A stretch of 64,000 nucleotides of DNA, taken from an uncultured Methanolobus sp. (GTDB taxonomy: Archaea; Halobacteriota; Methanosarcinia; Methanosarcinales; Methanosarcinaceae). Each line of letters begins with the position of its first letter. Position 1 is the stretch's first letter. Below the pieces are notes generated by a model. That model made no database searches. It was not told where the DNA came from and worked only from the letters and a program-made list of their open reading frames with translations. Shown here one piece after another: positions 24,058 to 43,103 of this stretch. The DNA lies in the NCBI GenBank assembly GCA_963675495.1, contig OY776215.1:640001-704000 (forward strand), given 5' to 3'. The position numbers were made by a program, and so were the translations under genes.

Positions 24058-25038
24058 ATGCTGGATCTTGAATCACCATCAACACTAGTGGCCTTGGTCC
24101 TTGCAAGTAATTTTCTGGCGCCATTTCTAGCAACTTTTATTTCAATGCCATATTTCATTAAAAAGCTAACTGAAAGAGGTTTCATTGTCAGGGATTATTA
24201 CAAAAAAGAAATGACAATGATCCCGGATAGAGGTGGCATTGCCATTCTTCTTGTTGCCATGGTATGTTTTTCATTGAACACGCTGTTTTTCAAATTCTCT
24301 ACGACAAATTATGTTGCCCTCATAGTAATAGCCATGTTCGGGTTATTTGGAATATTGGATGATATGATAGATATTGGAAGAGTGACCAAACTTCTTCTTA
24401 TGTATTATTGCTCCTACCCATTGATACAGTATGCAACACATACTGCATTTACACTACCTAATGTTGGAAACATTGAACTTGGTATCCTGTACTTGCAATT
24501 TATCGTACCGACCTATGTTTTGGTGGCATCCAATCTTGTGAACATGCATTCTGGTTATAACGGTTTGGCCTCTGGGCTTTCCGTAATCGTGCTTTTATCA
24601 CTCATTATCAAATCAGTATTATTGGGAGATGTTGACCATATCATTGCAATTGTAAGCATAACAGGAGCAACTCTTGGTTACTACATGTATGATAAATATC
24701 CATCACAGATATTTTGGGGCAATGTGGGTTCACTTACCATAGGAGCTGCGATAGGAACCATCATAGTATTACAGGGATTCATCATAAGTGGTTTTATTAT
24801 GCTAATACCCCATACGGTGAACTTCCTTATGTATGCTTACTGGAGAGCAATGAAATTCCCTGAAGCAAAGTTTGGAAAGGAAAGAGAGGATGGAACTCTC
24901 GAAGTACCAAATCCACTTACTCTGAAATGGGTATTACCTTACTATCTCAGAATCACAGAAAAGCATGCCACATGGGCAATGTATGCCTTAACGGGCTTAT
25001 TCTGCTTGATGGGGATCTTTTTGCCGGGAAGAATATGA
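24058..25038 (+). CDS. UDP-GlcNAc:dolichyl-phosphate GlcNAc-1-phosphotransferase (AglH/MraY/GPT family)
   Basis: GILDD, NLVNMHSGYNGLASG, YPSQIFWGNVGSLTIG; multiple TM helices. Confidence 0.88.
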   Translation: MLDLESPSTLVALVLASNFLAPFLATFISMPYFIKKLTERGFIVRDYYKKEMTMIPDRGGIAILLVAMVCFSLNTLFFKFSTTNYVALIVIAMFGLFGILDDMIDIGRVTKLLLMYYCSYPLIQYATHTAFTLPNVGNIELGILYLQFIVPTYVLVASNLVNMHSGYNGLASGLSVIVLLSLIIKSVLLGDVDHIIAIVSITGATLGYYMYDKYPSQIFWGNVGSLTIGAAIGTIIVLQGFIISGFIMLIPHTVNFLMYAYWRAMKFPEAKFGKEREDGTLEVPNPLTLKWVLPYYLRITEKHATWAMYALTGLFCLMGIFLPGRI

Positions 25039-25067: not shown

Positions 25068-25766
25068 TCATAACATAAAACCATCTATTCCGGTTACGTA
25101 TTTAGAGTTTTTAGTAATCCTATAAGGAAAAATATCCGTTATTGAGCTTGCAAAAGCTTCGTGTTCTGAAGAATACTTGATCTCTACCACTACAGAATTA
25201 TCTTCAGTATGCTTCTCTAAAAAAGAATTACCGTTTTTCCTTAATTTGTAATATTGCAGATCAAAATCGATTGTTACCCTGAATTTACGATCGGACGACA
25301 AGAAATATTTGCGATTATAATGATTAAGGAGAGAAAAATTCATCTGACAAAGATATTCTTTCAGATTATCCGGTATATCTGAGCGCAGAAAAATCTCTTG
25401 TTGTTCTTTTAGTGAAAAATTGGAATCAAGAATAAAAGATTTAAGAGGAAATATCTTTTTACAGCTGACAAGATTTTTTTTGATCTTTAATTCAAGAACT
25501 GGTTTTTCTATTTTACCTAAAATATCCCCGTACCATCTGACCCTTACCTTTAAGCGATTACTCAATCCGTCAACATTATCAAAATAATGTTGCATTGAAG
25601 GAGTATCAAAATAAATATTATTCACAGAACGTAAAGGATATACCTCTGTGAACATAGCAGGATGACATTTTATAATAGATTCTACCTCATACCTGCTCAA
25701 ACCAGTGATCAACGATTTCTTTTCATACCGATACTCATCTGAAGCCAAAAGATCCTCAATTAACAC
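25068..25766 (-). CDS. VTC-domain (CYTH/triphosphate-tunnel) polyphosphate-polymerase-like protein
   Basis: RYEKK, VNNIYFDT, RLKVRVRWY, LELKIK, YNRKYF, RVTIDFDL, VVEIKY and SKY, the motif series of prokaryotic VTC proteins. Confidence 0.85.
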   Translation of the reverse strand: MLIEDLLASDEYRYEKKSLITGLSRYEVESIIKCHPAMFTEVYPLRSVNNIYFDTPSMQHYFDNVDGLSNRLKVRVRWYGDILGKIEKPVLELKIKKNLVSCKKIFPLKSFILDSNFSLKEQQEIFLRSDIPDNLKEYLCQMNFSLLNHYNRKYFLSSDRKFRVTIDFDLQYYKLRKNGNSFLEKHTEDNSVVVEIKYSSEHEAFASSITDIFPYRITKNSKYVTGIDGFML

Positions 25767-26856
25767 TCTTACCCCTCTTAAACAAATAAACTATCAGCAA
25801 GATTCCAAACATAAACCCAAAGGAAACGAAAACACCATATTTGAACCCTCCGCTTGAAATAATGGCTTTGAACTTATTGTATTTTACATGTTGAACAGTA
25901 GAATAATGATTTTCCCAGTATTCAACATCATATGTGGTTACATCTTCTTCTATATCCATATTTGTCAGAGATGTTGCTTTGAATTCTACATCCCCATCAC
26001 CTTTCACAAAGGCCTTGATAACAGCGTCACTACGTATATCACCCATAGCAGCTGAAATATAGGTTATATTCTCATGTTCCCTGTCCTCATGATAGAATAT
26101 GGGTAAGGAGTACCATTCAAATTTTTGGATTCCAGTATCTCCTGCAAGCATATATACATTCTTTACTTCTGAAAGACTTATAATTGCAGGCATAATGGTA
26201 TCTTTGAAATTTTCATCATAAGCAACATCTGTATTTTTGTATTCATCAAGAATACTGAGATCATCATTGTTCTTACTCCATAGAGTCTTGTGCATCATGA
26301 TGAAAACATTATCAATTTCCGGAGAATCCATTGTTTCATTTATAGAATTCATAAGGAAATCATATTGATCACCTGTTATTTCGCCCCATGTGAAATTACC
26401 ACTGTTCAATGCTATGTACTTATCAGAACCATAGGTGAATTCATAATAACGAGGAATTCCAAAATAATCATCATAAGACTCGTCTATTTGGTCGTGGTTT
26501 CCAATTACATTTACCAGAGGTTTTGTAACGTCTGTTGCTATAGAGGCCTGGAAATTCTCAATAAGGTGGGGATCTGTCCTTATGTAGTTATCACCAAGTA
26601 GTACCATAAAAGATGCATTGTCCTCGTTGAACATGTCAATGTTCGTTAAAAATGAACTGGCAGGATATGAAGAAAGAGATCCCGGTGAGCCATAGGGATG
26701 CCCGACAAAAAGGAACGAATAGTTTTGCGGACCTTCCGGCAAATAAAGGGGAACATCATTAATAGTATCATTAAAATATGCTGCTGAAGCTGTTGGACTT
26801 AAACAACATGCAATCAGCAAGAATAGTATCAATACACTTGAATATTTAGTTTTCAT
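25756..26856 (-). CDS. Secreted, C-terminally anchored calcineurin-like metallophosphoesterase
   Basis: Signal peptide (MKTK..ASA); VGHPYG, LLGD, GNHD, MMH and LAGD motifs; C-terminal TM plus KRGK. Start taken at ATG 26856 after GAGGGG. Confidence 0.75.
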   Translation of the reverse strand: MKTKYSSVLILFLLIACCLSPTASAAYFNDTINDVPLYLPEGPQNYSFLFVGHPYGSPGSLSSYPASSFLTNIDMFNEDNASFMVLLGDNYIRTDPHLIENFQASIATDVTKPLVNVIGNHDQIDESYDDYFGIPRYYEFTYGSDKYIALNSGNFTWGEITGDQYDFLMNSINETMDSPEIDNVFIMMHKTLWSKNNDDLSILDEYKNTDVAYDENFKDTIMPAIISLSEVKNVYMLAGDTGIQKFEWYSLPIFYHEDREHENITYISAAMGDIRSDAVIKAFVKGDGDVEFKATSLTNMDIEEDVTTYDVEYWENHYSTVQHVKYNKFKAIISSGGFKYGVFVSFGFMFGILLIVYLFKRGKSVN

Positions 26857-29506
26857 TGTACAACCCCTCATAAACATTTAAACTGTCTCCGTTTATTATT
26901 TTTGAATTCAATATCAGACTTGATCCGCTCTCGACAATATAAGGGATCCTTGTGTCTTCAATGAGAGTAAATTTGGCGTTTATAGCCCCTGGCCCAAATT
27001 CAGATTTTTTCTGAAAAGCAGTGAGCCCTACATCAGAAGAAGAAACGAGTGTGTTATCTATATAAACTGTTGAGAGGTCCTTGCTTGCTACGCCAACCGA
27101 GCTGTTCCTTATTTTGACGTAGTCAACCATCAAATTACTATTTTCTCCCCCACTGATACCTTTATCGCCTGCACCATCAACAATGCAGTCATGGATATAA
27201 ACGTCAGAACCTGAAAAATCCATAGCATCGTTCCCACAAGATATAAATGATGTGTGATGAATTTCACCAATCCCAAAATCATCATCAAGAGCATCGGACA
27301 AAGTATCCCGGAATGCAGAATTACTTATTACATATGGTGATCTGACAAGGTCCAGCATGTCATCTCCATAAGTATTGTTTGAAAAAATACACTCGTTAAT
27401 TTCAACTTCAGAATTGTAGAATGTTACAGCGCCACTTAATTGCCATGCGTTATACCTCGGTGCCGATAAATTACTGAAAATGACTCGATCTAATACAGAT
27501 TTTGATTCGGCATTCATGACAGCGAGACCAAAACCTGTAAGATCTGATGATGTGATGGTCACAGGATAATCTTCAGAGCCACAGAATTGTAAAGGAGAAT
27601 ATGAAATTATACTGGAATTGTTTTTCAGATCTAATACAGTAGGTTCATCACCATTGATTACAAATGTGAATCCTTCTGGTATTATAAGACTATCATTGAG
27701 TTCCCAGATGCCATTCTTTAGAATAATTCGTTTTCCTGATTCGTCAACATAAATAAAATCAAATGTATCGGCATTGGGACTTCTTCTAATAAAATCATTT
27801 TCAATGAAGTTATCAGAAACATGACTCCATGGATAGATCGATTCATTTCGTTTTACACTTTGTCCCAAAATACTGTACTCTAACACAAGCTCAGAAAGGA
27901 CATCATCAGACCATACAAGACCCTCGGGGAGGAAAAATTCGATATTTTCATATTTGACAACATCATTTGACTTTTTTCCTTCCAGAATTACTTCAGATGA
28001 TGGATACAGGACCATGTCCCCATATTTGACACCGTATACTTCCAGAGGAAATGCATGTGTGTTACCCAGTTCTAATGTAAATTTATTCGATGTGTTTGAA
28101 TAATAATGTGCATTCAGACATTTTACCGGATTCAATACATTCCGTATATATTCCTGATTATCAAAAAACACATTCGTTGAAAAATAGTAATAAGGATAAT
28201 CTTTATGGATTATAGATAAATTAGACTTTAACTCATCATCCAGATCAGTAAATATTTCTTCAAGGTAGGACTCATTTGAAACCCTTTCAAGTTCTGACAC
28301 ATACTTTTCAAAGAATACAGGATCTGTATAGATCATACTTTGATACGGTTCATTAAATTCACCAAGATTTGACATACCAAATAACCCATAATTACTTATT
28401 CTCTCACCTGAGTCACTGTCAAAACCTATCGGTTCTAGGCGAGAAGTTATTGGATTATAATAAAATCTTTGATTATGCCACCAGTTACCATGGGTCGCAC
28501 CCATCAGATCAGAAAGTGCCATAAAAGTTGCAAGTTTATCTACGTCAAAAACTTCACTTGTGCTCAAATTTCCTTCCCGGAATGACTCTAAAAGATCTTT
28601 TGCCTGGATGAATTGCCGGTATTTATCTGGATCTTCGATAACGCTGCTTGTCTGGAAAGTGTCAATATCACTTGAAAAATAACTTTCCACAAGATCATCT
28701 ATACCTTGAGTACGGCCAATCCAGAGATAGTCTTCATTGAAACTGATGATGGGACCTTCCCTGTAATATTCATTCTCTATTAACCGTTTATCAAAGTGCT
28801 CTTCCAGAGCGTATATGCCATTATTTTTTCCATTTACAACAACAGAAACGAAATAGTAACGTGGAGATATAATAGATTCCCTACCCAGTACTTCCTGATA
28901 TAGCCACTCATTCAGGAAAACACGAGTATTGGGGTTTTGAATTGAAAAAACTTTCATACCTAAAATGGTGTTGTCATCTTTAAGCTTAACTCGAAATGAC
29001 CATTTATCGCCCACAAGATGATCGACCCAGTCACCTTTCAATCTTATTTTCGCCTTTACCTCATAATCATTGAAACGTATAGTGGCTGGAACATAATCGT
29101 CATCATCTGTTATTAATATGCCCTGTTCAAGGGCTACTTCACGATTGTAGGCAAGTTTTTGAAAATCATTGTTTTTGATATCTATTGATATTGTTTCGGC
29201 ATTCGAGGATAAAGATGAGAAATAATTGACCGGAATTTGCACATTTTCATTAACAAGTCCTTTAGCCAAGAGCCTGGCATCATCGGGAGTCAAACCCATC
29301 TTTTCTATTGTCGATTTATATAATTTACTTGCACTGGGAGAAGGATTATCAAGTGTTCCAAGATACCCGGCTAAGACCATTCCTGAAAAAAAACTAATTA
29401 ATATGAATAAGGACAAAATAAGTACATAACTACTTTTTTTCTTCAACAGAACTAAAATACTCTGTCGTAAAACAGAGATTTTAGAATCTGGTTCTTTTAT
29501 TTTCAT
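26846..29506 (-). CDS. CotH-family atypical kinase with N-terminal TM anchor and C-terminal parallel beta-helix
   Basis: KIRLKGD, KWSFRVKL, VVVNGKNNGIYALEEHF, HNQRFYYNP..LEPIGFD. C-terminal beta-helix repeats (DALDDDF, DAMDFSGS, DKGISGGE). Confidence 0.82.
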   Translation of the reverse strand: MKIKEPDSKISVLRQSILVLLKKKSSYVLILSLFILISFFSGMVLAGYLGTLDNPSPSASKLYKSTIEKMGLTPDDARLLAKGLVNENVQIPVNYFSSLSSNAETISIDIKNNDFQKLAYNREVALEQGILITDDDDYVPATIRFNDYEVKAKIRLKGDWVDHLVGDKWSFRVKLKDDNTILGMKVFSIQNPNTRVFLNEWLYQEVLGRESIISPRYYFVSVVVNGKNNGIYALEEHFDKRLIENEYYREGPIISFNEDYLWIGRTQGIDDLVESYFSSDIDTFQTSSVIEDPDKYRQFIQAKDLLESFREGNLSTSEVFDVDKLATFMALSDLMGATHGNWWHNQRFYYNPITSRLEPIGFDSDSGERISNYGLFGMSNLGEFNEPYQSMIYTDPVFFEKYVSELERVSNESYLEEIFTDLDDELKSNLSIIHKDYPYYYFSTNVFFDNQEYIRNVLNPVKCLNAHYYSNTSNKFTLELGNTHAFPLEVYGVKYGDMVLYPSSEVILEGKKSNDVVKYENIEFFLPEGLVWSDDVLSELVLEYSILGQSVKRNESIYPWSHVSDNFIENDFIRRSPNADTFDFIYVDESGKRIILKNGIWELNDSLIIPEGFTFVINGDEPTVLDLKNNSSIISYSPLQFCGSEDYPVTITSSDLTGFGLAVMNAESKSVLDRVIFSNLSAPRYNAWQLSGAVTFYNSEVEINECIFSNNTYGDDMLDLVRSPYVISNSAFRDTLSDALDDDFGIGEIHHTSFISCGNDAMDFSGSDVYIHDCIVDGAGDKGISGGENSNLMVDYVKIRNSSVGVASKDLSTVYIDNTLVSSSDVGLTAFQKKSEFGPGAINAKFTLIEDTRIPYIVESGSSLILNSKIINGDSLNVYEGLYNEN

Positions 29507-29508
29507 TC

Positions 29509-30198
29509 TTAGATGATCCCCTTATTATCCAGGAAATGAACCCTAATTGACGCAGATATCTGTTTCATGTCGTTTTTAAGAGTAATTAGATCCTCTATTT
29601 TGTCTACATTTACATTGAATGTTGCTTCAAATATCTCATTGGATTCATCAAACCTTTTCAATTCAGCCGATGAACAATGTTCTAATATGACATTCTTAAC
29701 CATCGATAGCATATGGCTATCAGGTTTATAATCCGAAATGGTAAGGTGGAAATTTTGTTCAAGGATATTCTTTTTGGTAGCTTTTGATTTAATAATGATT
29801 ATAGCGATAATAAATAGAATCGTAATCGTAGTAATTAGTAGCTGGTCTGCACCAAGACCCAATCCCACTGCAATTACCAGGAATAAAAAGGCTAGCTCTT
29901 CAGGCTCTTTTATTGCAGTCCTAAAACGCACGATCGACAGGGCACCGACCAATCCTAATGAGAGAGCTAAAGAAGATTTTACTACTGTGATAATGAACAT
30001 TGTTGTCATTGCAATGAGCATAAAATTCTTAGCAAATGCCCTTCTGTTAGAAAGAGAAGTCCCGTAACGAATATATGCCTGGCTTAAAATAAATGCCAAA
30101 ATACCTGCCAGAAGAAGGTTGAATAAAAACCCATAAACCGGCACCTGATAACTTTGTGTTGATAAAAACTCATCAAAAGTAAGCGAACTGGTATCCAT
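29509..30198 (-). CDS. DUF4956-family membrane protein (MgtC-like TM domain plus C-terminal soluble domain)
   Basis: SSLALSLGLVGALSIVRFRTAIKEPEELAFLF..IAVGLG.G signature. Confidence 0.9.
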   Translation of the reverse strand: MDTSSLTFDEFLSTQSYQVPVYGFLFNLLLAGILAFILSQAYIRYGTSLSNRRAFAKNFMLIAMTTMFIITVVKSSLALSLGLVGALSIVRFRTAIKEPEELAFLFLVIAVGLGLGADQLLITTITILFIIAIIIIKSKATKKNILEQNFHLTISDYKPDSHMLSMVKNVILEHCSSAELKRFDESNEIFEATFNVNVDKIEDLITLKNDMKQISASIRVHFLDNKGII

Positions 30199-30528
30199 AA
30201 TTCTACCCCTTTAAATACAGTATATCGGAAGAAAATGAACACATAAAATTCATTTTTCCATTTTTCATTTTAATATCTCCAATAAGCACTATACGTTTAA
30301 TACTTAAATTTATTGGTAAATATTCATATAAACTCATTTTCCAGAAATTCTTTGATACTATTCACAAGACGGTCACGTAAATTATAGACCAAAGCTCGTA
30401 CCAGGTTTTAATATATTTAATTTAAATTATAAATACATATCCTTAAAAATAGTAATATACGTGTAATTTTTAATTAAGCCACATAAATAATAAATATAAT
30501 GCACACTTTAACAGTTCAGGGTATTTCC

Positions 30529-31176
30529 ATGAAAAAAAGAAACGTTCTTGCGATAGGTGCTCATCCAGATGACATTGAAATTGGATGTGGAGGAACAATA
30601 GCTAAGCACGTCATGAATAATGATAATATAATTATTCTTATTATGACTGATCCATTTTTCACAAACCATGATGGCACGATACTAAGAACAACAGAAGGTG
30701 GCAAGCAAGAAAGCATTGCAGGTGCTGAAATACTTGGTGCAAAGTTGATTCATCTTGATTTTGAGACGAAGAATGTGCCATACTCTTCAGAATCAATAGA
30801 AGCAATAAACAAGATCATAGACGATAATTCCATTGACACGATCTATACTCATTGGTACCATGATACACATCAGGATCATAAAAGGACTACACAGGCAACC
30901 ATGTCAGCAGCAAGATATGTTCCCAATCTATTGATGTATGAACCCGAGTATCCAGCAGGCCGGTCTCATGTCGGTTTCAGAAACCAGTATTATATAGATA
31001 TAACTGATACACTTGAAAAAAAAATGGAAGCTCTAAAACAGCATGAAAGTCAAGTTTCTAAATATGGAGACCATTTCCTGGATGCAGTTCAGGCAAGGGC
31101 ACAGCATAGAGGTTATGAGATAGGTGCTAAATATGCTGAGTGTTTTGAAATTGTCCGTATAAAAGGCGAAATATGA
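30529..31176 (+). CDS. PIG-L/LmbE-family N-deacetylase
   Basis: AHPDDIEIGCGGT, DTHQDH, AECF. Start taken at MKKRNVL. Confidence 0.92.
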   Translation: MKKRNVLAIGAHPDDIEIGCGGTIAKHVMNNDNIIILIMTDPFFTNHDGTILRTTEGGKQESIAGAEILGAKLIHLDFETKNVPYSSESIEAINKIIDDNSIDTIYTHWYHDTHQDHKRTTQATMSAARYVPNLLMYEPEYPAGRSHVGFRNQYYIDITDTLEKKMEALKQHESQVSKYGDHFLDAVQARAQHRGYEIGAKYAECFEIVRIKGEI

Positions 31177-31440
31177 GTGATATACTATATTTATCTTTTT
31201 ATGTAATGATGGTTAGCAGTCTTCAATATTGTCAAATATATTATGAATAAGATAAAAGATGATCATATGGACTATTTTGACAATAAAAATCATTCACAAT
31301 GTTTGTGTTGATTTGTTTTTCCAATTGCCTGTGTCAGGGATTGGATATTTACCTCATTTCAACAAATATGATAAACAACATTTATATAAAAATATGGACA
31401 AATAGATTTAGAGAAATAACCTATTAATTGCCCAAAAAAG

Positions 31441-32628
31441 ATGAAACCAAACCCAAATTTGATACCCAGATTTAATATTGATTACAATGTAAAAGATCTA
31501 GTGGATTCTCTACTAAAATTGAAAGATCCTGTTGCATCTGATTGTATGAATTTAATATTCCCGGATTCAAACGTCATTTTTACAAATAGTGGTAGAACGT
31601 CACTGTATTTAATATTGAAATGTTTGAATTTACCACCCGAGTCAAATGTTGGCATTCCACTATACTCTTGTCCGAGTACTTTTGATTCCATTATTCACGC
31701 AGGACATGTCCCTGTTTTTTTAGATATAGATATCAATAATTTGACTCTTGATGTCAATGACCTGAATAATAAGATCAACAATTTAGATGCTATAGTGGTC
31801 ATTCATACATTCGGCAGACCTGCTGATATGACTAACATTATGAAAATAGCAGTCAATATTCCTGTTATAGAAGACTGCGCACATGCACTTTTGAGTAAAC
31901 ATGGGGATTCTTTACTTGGTACAATTGGTATTGCGGGATATTTTAGTTTCAGGTCTGGTAAATACCTATCAGCTGGAGAAGGCGGCATGATCCTCACTTC
32001 AGACGATGTTCTGGCAAATAAAATATCTGAAGAGCTAAATACATTCCCTGATGAAAGCATTGCAGGTGAAATAAAACATGCTTTTAAAACATATCTGCGA
32101 TCAGCTCTCTATCACAGACCATGGTTTGGTCTTTTTTCCCTGCCTGTTGGTTCATTGGTTGAAAAAAAAGTAGACATCATGAATAAATATTCCTTCAAGA
32201 TACAAAAAATCAGGAAAACTGATCTTGCTGTTATTTGTAGGAAAATTAAGGTTTTTCCATCCAATGTTGAAAAACAACGCGGTAATTCTTCTTTGTACTT
32301 AGAATCCATCAATTCCTTTGAGTCAAATGTTGTCACCGAAACAGATGATACTTATTGTAATTGCTTCTTGTTTCCTATTATAACACAAAATAAAAGATCA
32401 AGGGACGAAATGGCTATTGCTCTTACAAAAAAAGGGATAGATACAACACAACTTTTCAGTAATGTTCCTTCTATAGCCAAAGAGAGCTATGGTTACCTAG
32501 GTGACTGTCCAAATACCGAATATTTGTGTGACAGGATTCTGACCATACCTAATCATTATGTACTTAAACAAAAAGATTTGAAACATATAATTGCTTGCGT
32601 CAATCATTCTTGTGATAGGAGTTTATAG
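31441..32628 (+). CDS. DegT-family PLP-dependent protein (divergent)
   Basis: TNSGRTSL, IHTFGRP, IEDCAHA, SFRSGKYLSAGEGG. Confidence 0.85.
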   Translation: MKPNPNLIPRFNIDYNVKDLVDSLLKLKDPVASDCMNLIFPDSNVIFTNSGRTSLYLILKCLNLPPESNVGIPLYSCPSTFDSIIHAGHVPVFLDIDINNLTLDVNDLNNKINNLDAIVVIHTFGRPADMTNIMKIAVNIPVIEDCAHALLSKHGDSLLGTIGIAGYFSFRSGKYLSAGEGGMILTSDDVLANKISEELNTFPDESIAGEIKHAFKTYLRSALYHRPWFGLFSLPVGSLVEKKVDIMNKYSFKIQKIRKTDLAVICRKIKVFPSNVEKQRGNSSLYLESINSFESNVVTETDDTYCNCFLFPIITQNKRSRDEMAIALTKKGIDTTQLFSNVPSIAKESYGYLGDCPNTEYLCDRILTIPNHYVLKQKDLKHIIACVNHSCDRSL

Positions 32629-32629
32629 C

Positions 32630-33649
32630 TTGCCTGAAATTGTCATTACTAACAATGTAAAAAATAAAGAATTTGATGAGTTTTTATACAATAATCCATA
32701 TGCCAGCATATTCCAGACAAGAGAAATGGCTGAGGTCTACAGTAAAAATCCAGCTGCGCAACCATTTATGTTGACAGCTGTAAATAAAGATACGGACGAG
32801 ATTGTTGCTTCCCTTTTAGCAAAGATACTGGATGAGAAAAAAGGGTTTATGAGCAGCTTTTCTCGTCACTCGACTATAAGAGGCGGGCCTATTTTTGATA
32901 GTGAACAGGGAATAACTGCCATACCATTACTTTTTAAACAATACAATGAAATTGCCAATAAAAAAAATGTCATGTACAGCAGGATCTATCCTTTGGAAAA
33001 TACTATCGATGCTTTTTCCGTGTACGAAAAATGTGATTACGAATGTGAAACATGGAATAATTTCATTATCGATTTAGATAAAACAAAAAAAGAATTATGG
33101 AGTTCAATTAGCAAAAGTAAAAGAAGATGTGTAAATAAAGCAAAGAGTAATGGTTTAATTTTTAGAGAACTGGAAAGCAGAGAGGAAGTCAAAATTTTTT
33201 ATGAACTGGTAAAGCAGCGATATTCAATCAGAAACAATCCTCTTGAGGACATAAGTAATTTTGAGGCAGTTTACGATATACTTGTTCCTAAAAAGATGGC
33301 TAAATTCTTTTTTGTAGAATACGACGGTAAATGTATCGGTACACGCCTTGTTCTCTTGTACAAAAATAACATCTATGCCTGGTATAATGGCTCTGATTCT
33401 GAGTATTTCAATTATTACCCAAATGATTTCGCAGTATGGTCAGTTCTTGAATGGGGCCTGGAAAATGGTTTCACGTCATTCGATTTTGGTGGTGGCGGAA
33501 AAGATGAAGATACATCAGCTGGGTGGGTTCAATTTAAAAGACTCTTTGGAGGAAATATGGTTAATTACGGAAGATACACCTATATTCACAAGCCATTGAA
33601 GCTTCAATTTGCAAAAAGTGTGTTCAGTGTTTACAAGAAATTTTTATAA
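32630..33649 (+). CDS. FemAB/FemX-like GNAT (aminoacyl/acyl transferase)
   Basis: IFQT, RGGP, IDL....ELWSSISKSKRRCVNKA, FDFGGGG, FKRLFGG. TTG 32630 follows AGGAG. Confidence 0.85.
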   Translation: MPEIVITNNVKNKEFDEFLYNNPYASIFQTREMAEVYSKNPAAQPFMLTAVNKDTDEIVASLLAKILDEKKGFMSSFSRHSTIRGGPIFDSEQGITAIPLLFKQYNEIANKKNVMYSRIYPLENTIDAFSVYEKCDYECETWNNFIIDLDKTKKELWSSISKSKRRCVNKAKSNGLIFRELESREEVKIFYELVKQRYSIRNNPLEDISNFEAVYDILVPKKMAKFFFVEYDGKCIGTRLVLLYKNNIYAWYNGSDSEYFNYYPNDFAVWSVLEWGLENGFTSFDFGGGGKDEDTSAGWVQFKRLFGGNMVNYGRYTYIHKPLKLQFAKSVFSVYKKFL

Positions 33650-33682
33650 TATACGCTTATATAGATATCAGGAGTTGCCTTC

Positions 33683-34759
33683 ATGAGAATTATGATAGGA
33701 GTTGCCCATCCAAAGCACGTTCATTTTAGAAAAAATCTCATCAAGAATTTGCTCTTGAATGGACATGAAGTAAAAGTAGTTGCAAGAGAAAAGGACATTA
33801 CATTCCAGTTATTAAACTCTTATGGAATTAAATATGAATCTATAGGGCCCCACTATAAAAACTTCTATAAGAAAATATATGGCGTATATGAAGCAGACAG
33901 TTTAACTTATAAAATTGCTCGAAGGTTTAATCCGGACCTGATAATAGGAGGAAGCCCATATTTAGCACATGTAGGTAAACTATTGAAAATACCTCATATT
34001 GGTTTTTCAGATACTGAAAACACTCCTTTTAATAATTATATATTGCATTCCTGCTCAAAACTTGTTTGCACACCATTTTCATTTAAAAATTCATTGGGGT
34101 CAAAAAGACACATTTATTATAATGGGTTTGAGGAATTAGCATATTTACATCCTACTGACTTTAAGCCGGATGAATCGGTATTTGAGTCTCTTGACATCAA
34201 CTCTGATGAAAAATATATTGTTGTACGATTTGTGGAATGGGATGCAACTCATGACAAAGGCTCAAAAGGTTTCACTGATAAATTGAGTATCGTCAGGGAG
34301 CTGGAGAAATATGGGCGGGTTTTCATAACATCAGAAAAAGAACTCCCCCCAAGTCTTGAAAAAAATCGGATAAGTGTCCCACCTGAAAAAATCCATGATT
34401 TCATGTATTATGCAAATCTCTTCATTGGTGAAAGTTCTTCCATGGCATGTGAAAGTGCTGTCCTTGGTACTCCCTCCATCTACTTATCTACAAGCAGAAG
34501 GGGTTACATTGATGAAATGGAATCATCGTACGGCCTTGTTTATAATTATTCTGATCCGGAGACAGGCCAATCAGATGCTTTCAAAAAAGCCATAGAGATC
34601 CTGGAAGACAGTAATAGCAAACTGAAATGGCAACAAAAGCGTGAAAGAATGCTCAATGATAAGATAGATGTCACAAAATTCATTACTGAACTTGTAGATG
34701 GCTATCCAGATAGCATAAAAACCTTGAAGAACAAAGAGGGTATCATCTATAAAGGTTAA
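33683..34759 (+). CDS. DUF354-family protein (GT-B-like fold)
   Basis: HPKHVHF, AREKD, DTE, EELAYLHP..FKPD, VVRFVEWDATHD, MACESAVLGTP. Confidence 0.85.
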   Translation: MRIMIGVAHPKHVHFRKNLIKNLLLNGHEVKVVAREKDITFQLLNSYGIKYESIGPHYKNFYKKIYGVYEADSLTYKIARRFNPDLIIGGSPYLAHVGKLLKIPHIGFSDTENTPFNNYILHSCSKLVCTPFSFKNSLGSKRHIYYNGFEELAYLHPTDFKPDESVFESLDINSDEKYIVVRFVEWDATHDKGSKGFTDKLSIVRELEKYGRVFITSEKELPPSLEKNRISVPPEKIHDFMYYANLFIGESSSMACESAVLGTPSIYLSTSRRGYIDEMESSYGLVYNYSDPETGQSDAFKKAIEILEDSNSKLKWQQKRERMLNDKIDVTKFITELVDGYPDSIKTLKNKEGIIYKG

Positions 34760-34789
34760 GGTTAAAGATCCTTACTACTGGAAGATACT

Positions 34790-35482
34790 ATGAAAATTGC
34801 TATTCATCAACCTAATTATCTGCCTTATCTTGGTTTTTTTGACAAAATGAACAAAGCAGATGTATTTGTAATATATGATGATGCCCAATTCAATAAAGAG
34901 GATTTCCAGCATCGAAATAAGATACGCATTTTCAATGGTTGGAAATGGTTGACTGTACCTGTAGAGAAGAAAAGGATACCTATCAGGGAAATCAAGATAC
35001 GTAATAGTCTCCTCACAAAAGGTCAGATGTGGAATGATGTGCATCTGTCAATGCTGAAAGAAAACTACATAAACTCCCGGGAATTTCAGAATTACGAATC
35101 TGGAATCGAAGCTATATACATGTCTGATTACGAATATCTATTTGATCTAAATATGTCTTTGATCGACTTTTTAATGAAATCATTTGGTCTAAAAACCAAA
35201 ATTGTTTTTTCCAGTGAATTTGATTTCAAGACAAAGTCAACTGAAAGATTAGTAGACATTGTTGATTGTTTGGATGGTGATGTTTACATATCAGGCCCAT
35301 GCGGCAAGAATTACTTAGACACTTCTTTGTTTGAAACTAAGGATATATCTGTAGAATATCAAGACTTTAGACATCCGGTCTATGAGCAATGTTATGAAAG
35401 CTTTGAACCAAATATGGCTTCCATTGACGCTCTATTTAGTATTGGGAGAAAGACATTTAATATGAGGGATTGGAATGGTTAA
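34790..35482 (+). CDS. WbqC-family protein (putative glycyl transferase for sugar modification)
   Basis: IHQPNYLPYLGFFDK, RNKI, WLTVPV, YISGPCGKNYL, HPVYEQ. Confidence 0.92.
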   Translation: MKIAIHQPNYLPYLGFFDKMNKADVFVIYDDAQFNKEDFQHRNKIRIFNGWKWLTVPVEKKRIPIREIKIRNSLLTKGQMWNDVHLSMLKENYINSREFQNYESGIEAIYMSDYEYLFDLNMSLIDFLMKSFGLKTKIVFSSEFDFKTKSTERLVDIVDCLDGDVYISGPCGKNYLDTSLFETKDISVEYQDFRHPVYEQCYESFEPNMASIDALFSIGRKTFNMRDWNG

Positions 35483-36089
35483 AAGAACAATTTTGGCAGT
35501 CGGTGCTCATCCAGATGATATTGAGATAGGATGTGGCGGGACAATAAAAAAGCATATCCTGAAGGGTGATGATGTATACTATTTGATTGCTACAAAGGGA
35601 GAAAAAGGCGGGGATCCTAAGGAGAGGGTGGAAGAAGCCAGAAAAGCTGCACACATGATGGGTGTGAAAATGGTTGATTTTTTAGACCTGAAAGATACAT
35701 TTGTGTCCCACAACGGGATTACTGTGTCAATGATCGATGAAGTAGTCAAAAAATATGTTCCTTCTATAATCTATGTTCATTCGCTTAAGGATTATCATCA
35801 GGATCACCGCAACATTGCTCTGGCAGTCCTTTCAGCATCCCGCAAGATGGAAAACAGCATTATGTGCTATGAAGCTCCATCCACAACTCTTAAATTCGTC
35901 CCAAATGCATTCAGCGATATAAGTGAAACCTTTGAGACAAAGGTTTCCTGTGTGAAAGAGTTCTTTTCTCAGGAAGAACGAAATTATGTAGAACGTGAGG
36001 CAATTATCGATCTTTGCAAGTTTAGGGGCAAAACGATTAATGTGGAATATGCTGAAGCATTTGAAGTGGTAAGATTACTGGAATGGTAG
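35475..36089 (+). CDS. PIG-L/LmbE-family N-deacetylase
   Basis: AHPDDIEIGCGGT, DYHQDH, YAEAF. Overlaps the WbqC stop. Confidence 0.92.
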   Translation: MVKRTILAVGAHPDDIEIGCGGTIKKHILKGDDVYYLIATKGEKGGDPKERVEEARKAAHMMGVKMVDFLDLKDTFVSHNGITVSMIDEVVKKYVPSIIYVHSLKDYHQDHRNIALAVLSASRKMENSIMCYEAPSTTLKFVPNAFSDISETFETKVSCVKEFFSQEERNYVEREAIIDLCKFRGKTINVEYAEAFEVVRLLEW

Positions 36090-36235: not shown

Positions 36236-37780
36236 ATGAAGATATCAATTAGGACAATGGTGGAATTGTTTATTCCTTTGTTTTTATTGAACATTATTTT
36301 GCGTAATCAAGTTGTTTCCAATGAGATAGGAGTAGATTCATTTTTAATGCATGCAATGGCTAACTCCATTACAGAATATGGTTCAGCCAAATGGACATTG
36401 GACCCTCTATCTTATTTTGGGCTTTATCCAGCTTCATACACAAGCGCTATGCAGTTTCTGGTATCAGGTTTTTCCCAGTTGTCGGGTCTGGAAATGAGAT
36501 GGACTATCTTTTTATATTGTTTAATAATTGGTTTAATCAGTATGTTTGCTTCTTATCTTATGGCCAGTGAGATTTTTGATGATGATCTTTATAAGATATT
36601 AACAGCATTCGCACTTCCACTTTCACCAGGAGTTCTGGGCTACAGTACCTGGACCATTCCAACAAGAGGACTCTTTGTCATGCTGGCACCTTTATTTATC
36701 TTTTTGCTTTTAAGATGTAGAAAATCTTTGAAATTTGTTCCTTTAACTTTGATTTTTGGGTTCTTGCTTTTTACTGTTCATCACCTATTTTATTTCTTGC
36801 TCCCTGTCATTGGTGCTTTTTTTATCCTCTATTGTACATTTCTACTCAAGGACAAACTGAGGATTAGTGACCAACCTATCATACAAAAATATTTGCCGTT
36901 TTTTATTATTATGGGTTTTGGATTTATGTTCTCTATTCCATTTTTTACTGGAAAGTTCATAGAACAAACCCGGTATGCACCCGTCTATATAAATTATATC
37001 AGGTATGTTGGGCTTCTCTTCATTCCAGCTATAGGTGGATTCTTGTACCTCGTGTTTAAAAGAAATAAAGAGTTTGGAGAATGGTTCTTAATATTGTCCC
37101 TGATGTTTTTAACGGTGTTTGTATATGAACAAACATATATGAAATGGTTCATACCAATCTTTGCAATTCCTTTTGCAAGTATGGGTTTGTTTAATATTAT
37201 AAAAGATTCAAAAAATAAAATAGTAGCAACTAAAGTGTTTATGCTGTTTATAATAGGTTCTATTATATTTTCGGGTTACTACCAGTACATAAATATTTAT
37301 GAAGAAGATGCTTATAGTGAAAGATATCTGGAAAAATCGGTTTTTGAAACTGGCCTGTGGGTTCAAAATCATATAACTGAGACTGCTACAACAAATGATA
37401 TTCAGTTCGGAAGGCGTATAGCTTCAGTGGCTGATACATCCCACATACTAACAGATTCAACCATTCTCAATGAAGTTTACGGATTTTATAATGTAAACAT
37501 TTCTAACTTTGAGCGTCATCCGATCACATCAGAAGACTTTTGGTTTAGTGGTTACAAAGGTAAGGACTATGGACTTATTAAATGGGAACGCGTTCAAAAA
37601 GGAACGGATGATGATACCAGCGTAAAATTTTTCGTTGAAAATACCAGAGCAAATGGTAACATTATTTGGAACCATAAAATAGTTCCCTCCCCACTATTGA
37701 AAGATGCTCGTTCTCAGAACAAAATATATGATAATGAGATATCAAACATATGGACTTTGAATTGGGATGATGAAACCTAA
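36236..37780 (+). CDS. Polytopic membrane protein, possible GT-C-type transferase or glycan polymerase
   Basis: About 11 TM helices; acidic first loop (EIGVDSF); HH motif; soluble C-terminal domain ending KIYDN. Confidence 0.6.
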   Translation: MKISIRTMVELFIPLFLLNIILRNQVVSNEIGVDSFLMHAMANSITEYGSAKWTLDPLSYFGLYPASYTSAMQFLVSGFSQLSGLEMRWTIFLYCLIIGLISMFASYLMASEIFDDDLYKILTAFALPLSPGVLGYSTWTIPTRGLFVMLAPLFIFLLLRCRKSLKFVPLTLIFGFLLFTVHHLFYFLLPVIGAFFILYCTFLLKDKLRISDQPIIQKYLPFFIIMGFGFMFSIPFFTGKFIEQTRYAPVYINYIRYVGLLFIPAIGGFLYLVFKRNKEFGEWFLILSLMFLTVFVYEQTYMKWFIPIFAIPFASMGLFNIIKDSKNKIVATKVFMLFIIGSIIFSGYYQYINIYEEDAYSERYLEKSVFETGLWVQNHITETATTNDIQFGRRIASVADTSHILTDSTILNEVYGFYNVNISNFERHPITSEDFWFSGYKGKDYGLIKWERVQKGTDDDTSVKFFVENTRANGNIIWNHKIVPSPLLKDARSQNKIYDNEISNIWTLNWDDET

Positions 37781-40364: not shown

Positions 40365-43103
40365 GTGATTAATATGAAACTTCCACCCATAACAATTACC
40401 TCAATATTATTAATGTCGATCATAATGATTGCTTCAGGCACTGCCTCAGCGACAGGTTACTACGTTTCGACATCTGGCGATGACTCAAATACCGGCCTCT
40501 CTCCAAACGATGCATGGCAAAGTCCTTCTTATGCAGTTTCAAGAGTTACTGCAGGAGATACCATTTACCTGATGGCAGGAACATGGTATGGAGAACATCT
40601 TATTTTTGAGACTTCAGGAACAAAAGACGCCCCTATAACTCTTACCACTTATAACGGAGAAGTTATTCTTGACGGTGTAGACAGATTTGACAGAGAAGGC
40701 GATCACTACACTGCAATTGAAATACATGATTATTATAATGGATTGGAATATATAAATATAAACAATCTAATAATTCATGACTATTACAGAGGAATTTACG
40801 TTAGAAACGCAAATAATGTGAATATCGACAATATAGAAGTATATGACACTTCTTACATAGGTGTCGATTTTGTGGACTCACACCAATCATCACTGACGAA
40901 TTCAGATATTCATGACAATGGCTGGAATTCTGTTTCTGTTGTCGCGTACCAACAGAGCACCAGCGACATACAAATATTAAATAACAAGATACATGACAAT
41001 CCAGGAACATCAGGTGGTCCCGGCCACAATTTAATAGATCTTTTCAACCTTGGCGAAGACGCTTCTTTGAAGTCAATCGATATTAAAAATAATTACATAT
41101 ATAATAGTGGTCTTACTGGTTCAGCTATTTTTGAGCATGGTTCATACAACCCGATGTACAATATGAATGTGATCAACAACGTTGTTTATAATACAAAACA
41201 AATTACACTAGATCGTTTTGCTAATTCTGTTGTTGCTGATAATAAACTGTACGACCAGGCAGGATATGGTTTTACCTGTTTTTACGAACCTATGAGTGAC
41301 GTTACATTGTCTGGAAATATTCTAAGCAACATAGCCTGGAGTGAGCTGCGTTTAACGGGTGCTCCTGATGGAAAAGAGTTACTTATTACAGATAACGACA
41401 TTTCTTACTATCGCATAGATGAAGGAACGGCTACAATTCGGGACCCTCAAAAATCAACATTTAAAATCCAGTCTCGTTCAGGAAGTCATATCAATGTTGA
41501 ATTTTCGAACAATCAGGTTTTCAAAACAAATGGCATCAATAATCCCACATTTGGTCCAAGCTCCAGCTCCTATGATGCTCTTGGAGATGACTACGTAACC
41601 TTCACCACATATCCAATGACAGCAAAGCCCTCTTCTTCAAATATAAATATACAGGTCAATAAATTCGACACCAGCTTATCTCCAGGTGAAAATCTTGTAG
41701 AGTTTGTTTCAAGCTCAAAATATGGAAATCGTGTGGACTTCACAATAGCAGAGTTAAAGCCAGATTTGAAGTACACTGTAAAAATGGATGGTCTGGATTT
41801 TGCAGAAGTTATGGCGAATGAAGATGGAGTAATCAGTTTCAGCAATAATATTTGGTCAGAACATACATTTACATTGACAGAGACGTCTGCGAGTTCAAGT
41901 TCTTCCAGCGGTTCAACTCCAATTATTTCCAGCGCAGGCCCATCTTATTCACCAGCTTCCAACTACTTTACGGCAGATATAGGTGATTCCACAAAACTTG
42001 CTGTAGACGCTGGTCAGAAATTTACCAAAACACTTTGGTATCTAGATGGGGAACTAATGGAAAGTGATTCAGTGACATATAGCCCGGAATGGAAAAAAAC
42101 TGGCGTACATGTTGTTGTTTTCAAAGGTACTGCTGGAGATAATCTCTATATGAAATGGACAATAACAGTTGAACAAACGGAGGTTGAGGATAATCCAACA
42201 ACTGAAACACCTTCCACACCAGGTTCATCCAGCGACTCAACTCCAATAGTATCCACAAAAGGTCCATCTTATTCACCTGCTTCCGGCTACCTCACAGCAA
42301 ATGTAGGTGATTCCACAAAACTTACTGCAAACTCAGATCTGAAATTTACAAAAGCACTTTGGTATGTTAATGGAAAACTAATGGAAAAAGATTCAGTAAC
42401 CTATACAAAGGAATGGGAAAAGTCAGGCAAATATGTGATCGAATTTAAGGGAACTGCCGGAGATAATCTCTATATGAAATGGACAATAACAGTTTCTGAA
42501 CCAGAGAAAGAAGAAGAGTCAACAATTGACATTCCTTCCAACCCAGGCTCATCCGTTACAGGACCATCTTATTCACCTGCTTCCAGCTACCTCACAGCAA
42601 ATGTAGGTGATTCCACAAAACTTACTGCAAACTCAGATCTGAAATTTACAAAAGCACTTTGGTATGTTAATGGAAAACTAATGGAAAAAGATTCAGTAAC
42701 CTATACAAAGGAATGGGAAAAGTCAGGCAAATATGTGATCGAATTTAAGGGAACTGCCGGAGATAATCTCTATATGAAATGGACAATAACAGTTTCTGAA
42801 CCAGAGAAAGAAGAAGAGTCAACAATTGACACTCCTTCCAACCCAGGCTCATCCATTACAGGACCATCTTATTCACCTGCTTCCAGCTACCTCACAGCAA
42901 ATGTAGGTGATTCCACAAAACTTACTGCAAACTCAGATCTGAAATTTACAAAAGCCCTTTGGTATGTTAATGGAAAATTAATGGAAAAAGATTCAGTAAC
43001 CTATACAAAGGAATGGGAAAAGTCAGGCAAATATGTGATCGAATTTAAGGGAACTGCCTTAGATAATCTCTATATGAAATGGACAATAACAGTTTCCGCC
43101 TAA
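40365..43103 (+). CDS. Secreted parallel beta-helix protein with four C-terminal Ig/PKD-like repeats
   Basis: Signal peptide; YYVSTSGDDSNTGLSP..AW..GDTIYL..GTW; PbH1 repeats; Ser/Pro/Thr linkers; four GPSYSPAS...MKWTITV modules. Confidence 0.82.
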   Translation: MINMKLPPITITSILLMSIIMIASGTASATGYYVSTSGDDSNTGLSPNDAWQSPSYAVSRVTAGDTIYLMAGTWYGEHLIFETSGTKDAPITLTTYNGEVILDGVDRFDREGDHYTAIEIHDYYNGLEYININNLIIHDYYRGIYVRNANNVNIDNIEVYDTSYIGVDFVDSHQSSLTNSDIHDNGWNSVSVVAYQQSTSDIQILNNKIHDNPGTSGGPGHNLIDLFNLGEDASLKSIDIKNNYIYNSGLTGSAIFEHGSYNPMYNMNVINNVVYNTKQITLDRFANSVVADNKLYDQAGYGFTCFYEPMSDVTLSGNILSNIAWSELRLTGAPDGKELLITDNDISYYRIDEGTATIRDPQKSTFKIQSRSGSHINVEFSNNQVFKTNGINNPTFGPSSSSYDALGDDYVTFTTYPMTAKPSSSNINIQVNKFDTSLSPGENLVEFVSSSKYGNRVDFTIAELKPDLKYTVKMDGLDFAEVMANEDGVISFSNNIWSEHTFTLTETSASSSSSSGSTPIISSAGPSYSPASNYFTADIGDSTKLAVDAGQKFTKTLWYLDGELMESDSVTYSPEWKKTGVHVVVFKGTAGDNLYMKWTITVEQTEVEDNPTTETPSTPGSSSDSTPIVSTKGPSYSPASGYLTANVGDSTKLTANSDLKFTKALWYVNGKLMEKDSVTYTKEWEKSGKYVIEFKGTAGDNLYMKWTITVSEPEKEEESTIDIPSNPGSSVTGPSYSPASSYLTANVGDSTKLTANSDLKFTKALWYVNGKLMEKDSVTYTKEWEKSGKYVIEFKGTAGDNLYMKWTITVSEPEKEEESTIDTPSNPGSSITGPSYSPASSYLTANVGDSTKLTANSDLKFTKALWYVNGKLMEKDSVTYTKEWEKSGKYVIEFKGTALDNLYMKWTITVSA
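42261..43097 (+). repeat. Three near-identical intragenic repeats with an exact 300-bp period (a diverged fourth copy starts at ~41937)
   Basis: GG(T/A)CCATCTTATTCACCTGC at 42261, 42561 and 42861, with almost identical downstream sequence. Confidence 0.95.

Follow-up and report, generated by a model that had tools for sequence, protein, structure and literature searches.

A four-gene cassette encoding a DUF4956 membrane protein, a CotH-like protein, a metallophosphoesterase and a VTC protein is found in an uncultured Methanolobus sp., within the 64,000-nucleotide (nt) stretch (assembly GCA_963675495.1, contig OY776215.1, positions 640,001 to 704,000 of the forward strand) that is called the window here. 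In window coordinates, and with the families assigned by Pfam, the four genes are as follows.

29509..30198, minus strand: DUF4956 membrane protein, 229 amino acids (aa)
26846..29506, minus strand: CotH-like/beta-helix protein, N-terminally anchored, 886 aa
25756..26877, minus strand: calcineurin-like metallophosphoesterase, 373 aa from Met1 or 366 aa from Met8
25068..25766, minus strand: soluble, stand-alone VTC (triphosphate tunnel) protein, 232 aa, GTG start

The DUF4956 and CotH-like genes are 2 nt apart and the phosphoesterase and VTC genes overlap by 11 nt. The overlap of the CotH-like and phosphoesterase genes is 32 nt if the latter starts at Met1 (position 26877) and 11 nt if it starts at Met8 (26856), the start used in an earlier note on this DNA. 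A purine-rich stretch (aggggt) lies ~8 nt ahead of the DUF4956 ATG. The arrangement described in the earlier note, four minus-strand genes with these spacings, agrees in its coordinates with the list of open reading frames (ORFs), and its four family assignments are borne out by Pfam; an NCBIfam search gave a name to none of the four proteins. Because it recurs across many genomes, the grouping of the four genes is far beyond chance, and the four-gene set is a real operon.

Three of the four families have been noticed together before. Genes for CotH, VTC (as 'polyphosphate polymerase') and DUF4956, with DUF4832 in addition, are described as accessory genes of Gram-positive pel loci, and regulation of Pel synthesis by phosphorylation has been suggested (Whitfield et al., 2020, PMC7112168). 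The homologues in Streptococcus intermedius are SIR_1592-1594; mutants of its DUF4956 and CotH homologues produce less Pel and show reduced aggregation, its DUF4956 protein is described as a 'MgtC' domain with four transmembrane (TM) segments plus an intracellular ACT domain, and the authors state that the three-gene synteny was not found outside Pel loci (PMC12345266). Contrary to this last statement, the loci fetched here show that the cotH-VTC-DUF4956 synteny is widespread outside Pel loci. The remark in the earlier note that such neighbourhoods are known from bacteria with no assigned function agrees with the pel-locus papers: in their available parts, the published record on the module is a gene association and two mutant phenotypes, with no biochemistry. 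Nothing relevant to the cassette in archaea was found in the literature searched. The window cassette belongs to an envelope module that is widespread and had been noticed before. The constant core of this module appears to be a cytoplasmic Vtc4-type tunnel enzyme and DUF4956, which are joined in this type by an anchored CotH-fold protein with a beta-helix of the polysaccharide type; a phosphoesterase predicted to face outward is added in a minority of genomes, including this one.

The recurrence of the cassette was followed from its CotH-like protein. At E <= 0.001 this protein has 2541 relatives, most of them ~880 aa long, which come from archaea and from a large number of bacterial phyla. 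When genome contigs were scanned with the CotH alignment, 609 candidate stretches yielded 557 relatives, of which the best 80 loci were analysed (L numbers denote fetched loci here and below). A recognisable CotH ORF is present at 77 of the 80, and 46 of these have at least 3 kb on both sides. Genes were labelled with hidden Markov models (HMMs) built from the loci themselves, not with Pfam. The phosphoesterase HMM absorbed two fusion proteins and with them some CotH columns; only these two fusions are double-labelled and the counts stand. At the 46 full-flank loci, with genes counted if they lie on the same strand within 3.5 kb, DUF4956 is found 35 times, VTC 28 times, both together 28 times, the phosphoesterase subfamily nine times and all four genes seven times. 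The complete order DUF4956-CotH-phosphoesterase-VTC is found in Methanogenium marinum (L027), which belongs to another methanogen order, and on two short contigs of metagenome-assembled genomes (MAGs) assigned to Nanohalarchaeota (L033) and Thermotogota (L025). For M. marinum, Pfam confirmed the DUF4956, CotH and VTC labels and gave the phosphoesterase no family at E <= 1e-5. Two Clostridia MAG contigs (L040, L042) carry the first three genes in order and end after the phosphoesterase, and at L052 the first three genes are also in order, with VTC ~1.9 kb further on. The phosphoesterase is found fused to CotH, in one protein that consists of a TM segment, CotH (residues 83-454) and phosphoesterase (516-779) (L071) and in another with CotH, beta-helix and phosphoesterase (L101). 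The co-occurrence of the cassette families elsewhere, whose absence the earlier note would have taken as a refutation, is thus confirmed by the 28 of 46 loci with DUF4956 and VTC and by the four-gene order in L025, L027 and L033. At four bacterial loci (L030, L079, L093, L094), two or three tandem CotH-like or phosphoesterase genes lie beside one DUF4956 gene.

In a FastTree phylogeny of 69 CotH-like proteins, which is a quick tree to which long-branch warnings apply, the window protein stands next to that of M. marinum with a support of 95, both within a group (starred in the tree) of eight, mostly methanogen, sequences. The Methanospirillum copies are found elsewhere in the tree, with Planctomycetota. 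This patchy pattern suggests transfer. Three contigs with lengths of 3-6 kb, whose bins are those of Thermotogota, Ignavibacteriales and Nanohalarchaeota (L025, L026 and L033), carry CotH-like genes that also nest in the methanogen group, and these contigs may be mis-binned methanogen DNA or recent transfers.

Within the class, VTC is found in 16 of 201 genomes, all of one family and of three genera, and within the phylum in 26 of the 401 genomes sampled and in 14 of 121 genera; Methanosarcina acetivorans has all three families (VTC, DUF4956 and CotH). The host is indeed an archaeon, as the earlier note had emphasized, but the presence of VTC in 26 of 401 genomes of the phylum shows that the cassette is not unique in this respect. 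A DUF4956 ORF adjoins the VTC match at all 17 loci around VTC matches in Methanosarcinaceae, and the VTC ORF is intact at 16 of them. At the remaining locus (L011, G037:C1:1670031-1670237), a VTC remnant with three in-frame stops (TGA, TAG and TAA) lies beside intact DUF4956 and CotH genes, and this cassette appears to be decaying from its VTC end. The type found in the window (DUF4956-CotH/beta-helix-VTC) is present with 47-63% identity in four other Methanosarcinaceae genomes, where it has no phosphoesterase, and in none of 22 other genomes sampled from the same genus. In seven same-genus genomes (L008-L010, L012-L015), VTC-DUF4956 is followed by an N-anchored protein of ~410 aa instead of CotH. 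The two of these proteins that were scanned (L009, L012) match the Cthe_2159 carbohydrate-binding beta-helix family (PF14262, E 1e-68 to 1e-71). Since the ~410-aa protein replaces CotH in these sister genomes, the outside partner of the core pair is exchangeable.

The VTC protein matches PF09359 with E 4.8e-25 (88.9 bits against a cut-off of 23). A search of PDB with the single sequence returned chance-level matches only and a profile was needed: that of 32 aligned sequences (A2) matches the catalytic domain of yeast Vtc4 (3g3q) with E 5.3e-11. In Vtc4, the triphosphate/Mn site consists of K200, R264, R266, K281, Y359, R361, E426, S457 and K458, and the inactive Vtc2 and Vtc3 are described as differing from it only at K458 (bioRxiv 10.1101/2023.01.27.525886). 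Eight of these nine residues, K458 included, are kept in the window protein according to the profile alignment with hand counting, and all eight counterparts are invariant in the 32 sequences.

Vtc4 K200: window VTC K17
Vtc4 R264: window VTC R75
Vtc4 R266: window VTC R77
Vtc4 Y359: window VTC Y150
Vtc4 R361: window VTC R152
Vtc4 E426: window VTC E195
Vtc4 S457: window VTC S221
Vtc4 K458: window VTC K222

HMMER aligns the ninth, K281, within an insert, and we infer that the invariant E92-x-K94 of the window protein holds its equivalent. The VTC domain named in the earlier note is therefore present, and it has the residue set of Vtc4 (eight of nine by alignment), with K222, the counterpart of K458, invariant in 32 of 32. 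The VTC profile finds 16092 representatives (clusters at 50% identity) at E <= 0.001, the best 150 of which are all 219-264 aa long, so that VTC is a stand-alone domain and not a fragment; a search for longer forms found none, which counts as weak evidence. By hydropathy, the window VTC has no hydrophobic segment, as is the case for 49 of 50 ORFs of its relatives.

The CotH-like protein matches PF08757 at residues 154-457 (E 4.3e-11, 43.3 bits against a cut-off of 23.8) and, below threshold, Beta_helix at residues 697-835 (E 3.5e-5, 23.9 bits against 25.9). Its layout comprises a TM segment (28-46), the CotH fold (~100-480), a middle region and a right-handed beta-helix (~640-886). Four Lys/Arg residues precede the segment 28-46 and one follows it, which by the positive-inside rule places the N-terminus inside and the C-terminus outside, and an N-terminal hydrophobic segment is found in 65 of 70 full-length ORFs of its relatives. 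Searching PDB with the single sequence gave chance-level matches only, so that a profile was required here too; this profile (A1) matches Bacillus cereus CotH (5jd9) at residues 127-460 with E 1.8e-4. B. subtilis CotH is reported to be inactivated by D228Q and by D251A (PMC7821199), and we mapped D228 and D251 to D224 and D247 of 5jd9 by the equal spacing of 23 residues. In the column of the catalytic Asp (D224 of 5jd9), HMMER places G340 of the window protein, with H339 just before it. An hhalign comparison of A1 with canonical-like archaeal CotH (probability 95.4%) sets a gap against the Asp and places H339 two columns further on. The motif NxRFYYN is present in 81 of 83 related ORFs, and in all 81 a His lies upstream of it, six residues before in 79 and seven in two, and a [FYH]D motif follows. 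N345 and D363, which correspond to the Asn of the HN motif and to the second, metal-binding Asp, are invariant in 24 of 24 sequences, and D363 aligns with the WDYD of 5jd9. Judged from these alignments, the clade of the window protein is one with a fixed His and no Asp base; N-x-D is kept in the other two archaeal CotH types, those of the second cassette of this genome and of a sister genus. The earlier proposal of an outward-facing CotH kinase thus holds for the fold and the topology and, with N345 and D363, for part of the active site, but not for the catalytic Asp, in place of which H339 is found.

The second cassette lies outside the window (C1:1576237-1579300; L001, L023) and has the order VTC-DUF4956-CotH, with a VTC of 248 aa (181 bits in Pfam), a DUF4956 of 231 aa and an N-anchored CotH of 544 aa. 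It has neither beta-helix nor phosphoesterase, and its proteins are 21-27% identical to those of the window. The idea that its CotH (type 1) also has no catalytic Asp was dropped after an ungapped N-x-D match to the canonical-like type of the sister genus; this CotH most likely keeps the catalytic Asp. Genes for PPX, PPK1 and a two-domain PPK2, a conventional polyphosphate (polyP) gene cluster, are also found in this genome within ~8 kb (C1:900246-908593), and the VTC genes are therefore not the only polyP route of the cell; this favours a role of the cassette other than housekeeping polyP.

The DUF4956 protein matches its Pfam family with E 4.1e-18 (66.1 bits against a cut-off of 30.6), as do all members of its alignment of 30 sequences (A3). 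It is polytopic by hydropathy, and several hydrophobic segments are found in 67 of 67 relatives. Its AlphaFold2 model (mean predicted local distance difference test score, pLDDT, 85) has predicted helices at 21-45, 52-73, 76-93, 99-116 and 120-142 and a predicted C-terminal domain (148-224) with an ACT-like beta-alpha-beta-beta-alpha-beta order. Y42, L83, S88, R91 and R93 are invariant in A3, in the motif GALSIVRFRTAIKEPEE. S88, R91 and R93 are found where helix 3 is predicted to end on the cytoplasmic side, a position that would suit an anion vestibule. Fold searches with the model were filled by the ACT-like tail and hardly covered the membrane part; they relate the tail to ACT/ferredoxin-like domains (Z ~10), with Foldseek matches to an ACT domain (3ibw, E 6.4e-4) and to the C-domain of MgtC (2lqj, E 1e-2). 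Pfam MgtC matches 24 of the 30 relatives weakly (E <= 1, the best 3.2e-4), all under the cut-off, and the window protein with 15.1 bits against 31.4. Searched against PDB, the DUF4956 profile had a best E of 1.1 and matched no VTC chain. The protein thus looks MgtC-like with an ACT-like tail, not Vtc1-like. The suggestion that DUF4956 is a Vtc1-type channel subunit was not borne out, and the 'split polymerase/translocon' of the earlier note is, because DUF4956 is not of the Vtc1 type, an analogy without homology on the membrane side. A complex prediction for DUF4956 (A3) and VTC (A2), run without controls, scored 0.01 against a mark of 0.32 and counts neither for nor against a contact.

The Pfam match of the phosphoesterase to Metallophos is marginal (E 2e-4, 22.3 bits against a cut-off of 21.5). 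Its AlphaFold2 model (pLDDT 88.5, predicted template-modelling score, pTM, 0.83) resembles GpdQ (2dxl, Z 20.5, root-mean-square deviation 2.5, 224 residues aligned), purple acid phosphatases (Z ~20), Rv0805 (Z 19.5) and PhoD (Z 18.6), with 58 chains at Z >= 8, and by this model the fold is truly calcineurin-like. The metal-binding motifs of calcineurin-like enzymes are DxH, GD, GNH[DE], H and GHxH. The window protein has GHxY (H60, Y62) instead of GDxH as its motif I and SGDxG (246-247) instead of GHxH as its motif V; its GD (95-96), GNHD (126-129) and H196 are invariant in the subfamily alignment. GHxY and SGDxG are found in the close subfamily, whereas GDxH and GHxH are kept by three distant members. 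Hydropathy shows a signal-like N-terminal segment (15-33) and, just ahead of the sequence KRGK, a second one at the C-terminus (348-366), in agreement with the signal peptide, C-terminal TM segment and outward orientation proposed before. The overall topology, in which VTC is internal and both the CotH-like protein and the phosphoesterase are external, likewise holds by hydropathy and is conserved in relatives. A word-seeded search with the phosphoesterase returned only a copy with 98% identity, and relatives were found in none of 200 other genomes of the class. That it is a private insertion was nevertheless ruled out, as relatives with at most 39% identity occupy the same position in loci fetched with CotH. 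Its membership in the cassette, as claimed in the earlier note, is thus supported by its recurrence in the same position and by the two CotH fusions and qualified by its facultative presence (9 of 46 full-flank loci).

The genes around the cassette form a surface-glycan island. The Pfam families found in it include DegT aminotransferases, PIG-L, WbqC, FemAB-like, DUF354 and GT2, together with a UDP-sugar dehydrogenase, an epimerase, and disaggregatase and beta-helix/dockerin surface proteins. The features next to the cassette are as follows.

24058..25038, plus strand: Glycos_transf_4 (AglH/WecA/MraY-type) phospho-sugar transferase, convergent neighbour (Pfam PF00953, E 1e-27)
30199..30498, no strand: AT-rich divergent intergenic region, 300 nt, upstream of the cassette (sequence read directly)
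30499..36089, plus strand: divergent glycan-modification operon encoding PIG-L, DegT, FemAB-like, DUF354, WbqC and PIG-L proteins (Pfam)

The Glycos_transf_4 gene ends 29 nt from the end of the cassette and is context only, not a cassette member. Both the cassette and the divergent operon probably have their promoters within 30199..30498. In Methanosarcina sp. Mfa9 (L041:243-5044), FemAB-like, DUF354, WbqC and PIG-L genes point away from the cassette and keep the order that they have in the window, with 26-56% identity overall (DUF354 44%, WbqC 56%, PIG-L 54%). This synteny and the Pfam neighbours uphold the description of the region as a surface-glycan locus beside an AglH-type gene. Glycan genes are also found in four of the five other loci whose flanks were scanned (L041, L058, L049 and L065). 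The operon at 30499-36089 and the cassette may serve one glycan. G+C is 0.33-0.39 in the island and 0.43-0.46 at the window ends, and the island looks mosaic. Other ORFs of the window encode a surface protein with three disaggregatase repeats and PKD, Ig-like and dockerin domains (8762-13138), two beta-helix/He_PIG/dockerin surface proteins (40365-43103 and 43679-46618), a homologue of which with 48% identity lies beside the Mfa9 cassette, where such a protein comes after the glycan operon as it does in the window, and a 514-aa protein within the glycan island with no Pfam family at E <= 1e-4 (36236-37780). The disaggregatase-type protein at 8762-13138 and the kinship grouping of the genome place it in the Methanosarcinaceae.

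These results support a membrane-spanning functional unit that is aimed at a surface glycan. We propose, with a probability of about 0.45, that the module modifies the surface glycan of the neighbouring genes with phosphate-containing groups. VTC would make a phosphoanhydride compound from ATP, most plausibly polyP, and either this product or its energy would cross the membrane by way of DUF4956. Outside, the CotH-like ectodomain would use the donor on a glycan that the beta-helix holds, by a chemistry based on His instead of Asp, and the phosphoesterase would trim or remove the product. A path of polyP from synthesis in the cytoplasm through DUF4956 to use at the surface would be consistent with the findings. 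We infer every biochemical step of this proposal; the gene order, families, topology, residues, recurrence and fusions are observed. An extended form of it, which we regard as quite unlikely, is an ATP-independent surface phosphorylation system common to archaea and bacteria, in which polyP, as the donor, would be threaded through the membrane by oligomers of the MgtC-like DUF4956 with the ACT domain as the gate, the CotH-fold ectoenzyme would take the phosphate from polyP via a phospho-His and write it onto the beta-helix-held glycan, and a dedicated, sometimes fused, metallophosphoesterase would be the eraser.

Several findings weigh against the proposed glycan modification. The CotH-like domain is without the catalytic Asp of the proven CotH kinases, with His there in 81 of 81, and could be a pseudokinase or do other chemistry. 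The conserved triphosphate tunnel metalloenzyme (TTM) residues of VTC fit a triphosphatase as well as a polymerase. No likeness of DUF4956 to a Vtc1-type channel was found by profile search against PDB or by Pfam, and no VTC-DUF4956 fusion was found among the best 150 of the 16092 VTC relatives or in the fetched loci. To our knowledge, MgtC is neither a channel nor a partner of a VTC enzyme. The same four genes lie beside sensor kinases, not glycan genes, in M. marinum (L027). Moreover, 18 of the 46 full-flank loci, mostly of Bacteroidota, have no VTC nearby and 11 have no DUF4956, which shows that the CotH-like protein can stand without VTC-DUF4956 nearby.

The missing Asp bears directly on a first alternative, in which polyP itself is the product. 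VTC and DUF4956 would make and deliver polyP as a surface polyanion that binds cations, serves aggregation or stores phosphate, the CotH-like/beta-helix protein would be a non-catalytic or ligase-like tie that anchors it to the glycan layer, and the phosphoesterase would set the chain length as an exo- or endo-polyphosphatase. Such a binding or atypical role fits a CotH domain with no catalytic Asp, and the kept Vtc4 residue set (8 of 9 aligned, plus the putative K281 equivalent) fits polyP synthesis. The core pair needs no kinase-like partner, because ~410-aa proteins, two of which were scanned and show no kinase fold, replace CotH in seven same-genus genomes; in its fold, the phosphoesterase comes nearest to phosphodiesterases and acid phosphatases. 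In contrast, the abundance of invariant polar residues near H339, N345 and D363 favours catalysis over mere binding, and we know of no surface polyP layer in methanogens. We consider this alternative unlikely.

The membrane protein leads to a second alternative, in which no donor crosses the membrane. DUF4956 and VTC would control polysaccharide synthesis or export from inside, with VTC as a triphosphatase or a sensor of phosphate or of a nucleotide signal, and the CotH-like protein and phosphoesterase would act outside independently. The ACT-like domain and weak MgtC likeness of DUF4956 would suit such a role, as would the position of the M. marinum cassette between sensor kinases, the TTM residues that are common to hydrolases and the idea of the Pel authors that phosphorylation regulates Pel synthesis (PMC7112168). 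K458, which separates the active Vtc4 from the inactive Vtc2/3, is however invariant in 32 of 32 sequences, and an outward-facing enzyme with a kinase fold would depend on the supply of a phosphoryl donor, as none is evident there. One shared substrate is also indicated by the CotH-phosphoesterase fusions and by the tight association, across phyla, of genes for the inside with genes for the outside, and we think it rather improbable that the module is regulatory. That the four genes are chance neighbours with no shared function in a gene-dense, transfer-prone glycan island is scarcely credible: the mosaic G+C of the island (0.33-0.39 against 0.43-0.46 at the window ends) and the absence of phosphoesterase relatives from 200 other genomes of the class would fit, but these genes are found together, with 2-nt gaps or overlaps, in a wide range of bacterial and archaeal phyla, in identical four-gene order in another methanogen order (L027) and with CotH fused to phosphoesterase (L071, L101).

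ATP is not present outside the cytoplasmic membrane, which raises the question of how prokaryotes could drive surface phosphoryl transfer. The module considered here sits in the surface-glycan loci of many phyla and affects Pel-dependent aggregation in a streptococcus (PMC12345266). Once shown, the function of VTC, DUF4956 and the His-type CotH would cover thousands of genes, and polyP might emerge as an extracellular carrier of energy or phosphate. New here are the archaeal four-gene form, in a complete genome with a second, different cassette, a CotH type without the kinase catalytic Asp, and, as a link between the fourth gene and the rest of the module, the fusions of CotH with the phosphoesterase. 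The Methanosarcina relatives are genetically tractable archaeal hosts.

Among known systems, the accessory genes of the Gram-positive pel loci have the same three families in one co-oriented set beside exopolysaccharide genes, with a CotH that is predicted to be secreted or outside and a DUF4956 described as modelled here, with an MgtC-type membrane part and an ACT domain. No pel gene or DUF4832 was found among the 22 ORFs of at least 110 aa scanned between 8.7 and 46.6 kb of the window. The CotH of the pel loci carries FN3, whereas the window protein of ~880 aa has a beta-helix and a His in place of the catalytic Asp; the window cassette also differs in its archaeal host and in the metallophosphoesterase inserted between CotH and VTC. 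With the eukaryotic VTC complex (yeast Vtc4/Vtc3/Vtc1; PDB 3g3q, 8i6v, 7ytj), the window VTC shares the triphosphate/Mn residues of the tunnel domain, including K458, and is likewise encoded with a membrane partner. It is, however, a 232-aa single domain without the SPX domain and the Vtc1-type three-helix membrane domain of that complex, and DUF4956 has no sequence relation to the membrane partner there. The architecture of DUF4956, a membrane domain plus an ACT-like tail, resembles that of the MgtC/SapB family (C-domain, PDB 2lqj), all matches to which are under the Pfam cut-off. MgtC itself is known to regulate the F1Fo ATP synthase and phosphate metabolism.

The Bacillus CotH spore-coat Ser kinase (5jd9/5jda) has the CotH domain and the HN and D motifs in common with the window protein. 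It possesses the catalytic Asp, where the window protein has none and an invariant His nearby, and it acts with CotB/CotG-type substrates and in sporulation, neither of which applies to the window protein, which is membrane-anchored, outward-facing and equipped with a beta-helix. The phosphoesterase shares its fold (Z 19.5-20.5 over 224-243 residues) and the GD, GNHD and H motifs with the class of GpdQ, Rv0805 and purple acid phosphatases. Unlike the members of that class, it has altered motifs I and V and represents a type that is exported, anchored at its C-terminus, located within CotH cassettes and sometimes fused to CotH.

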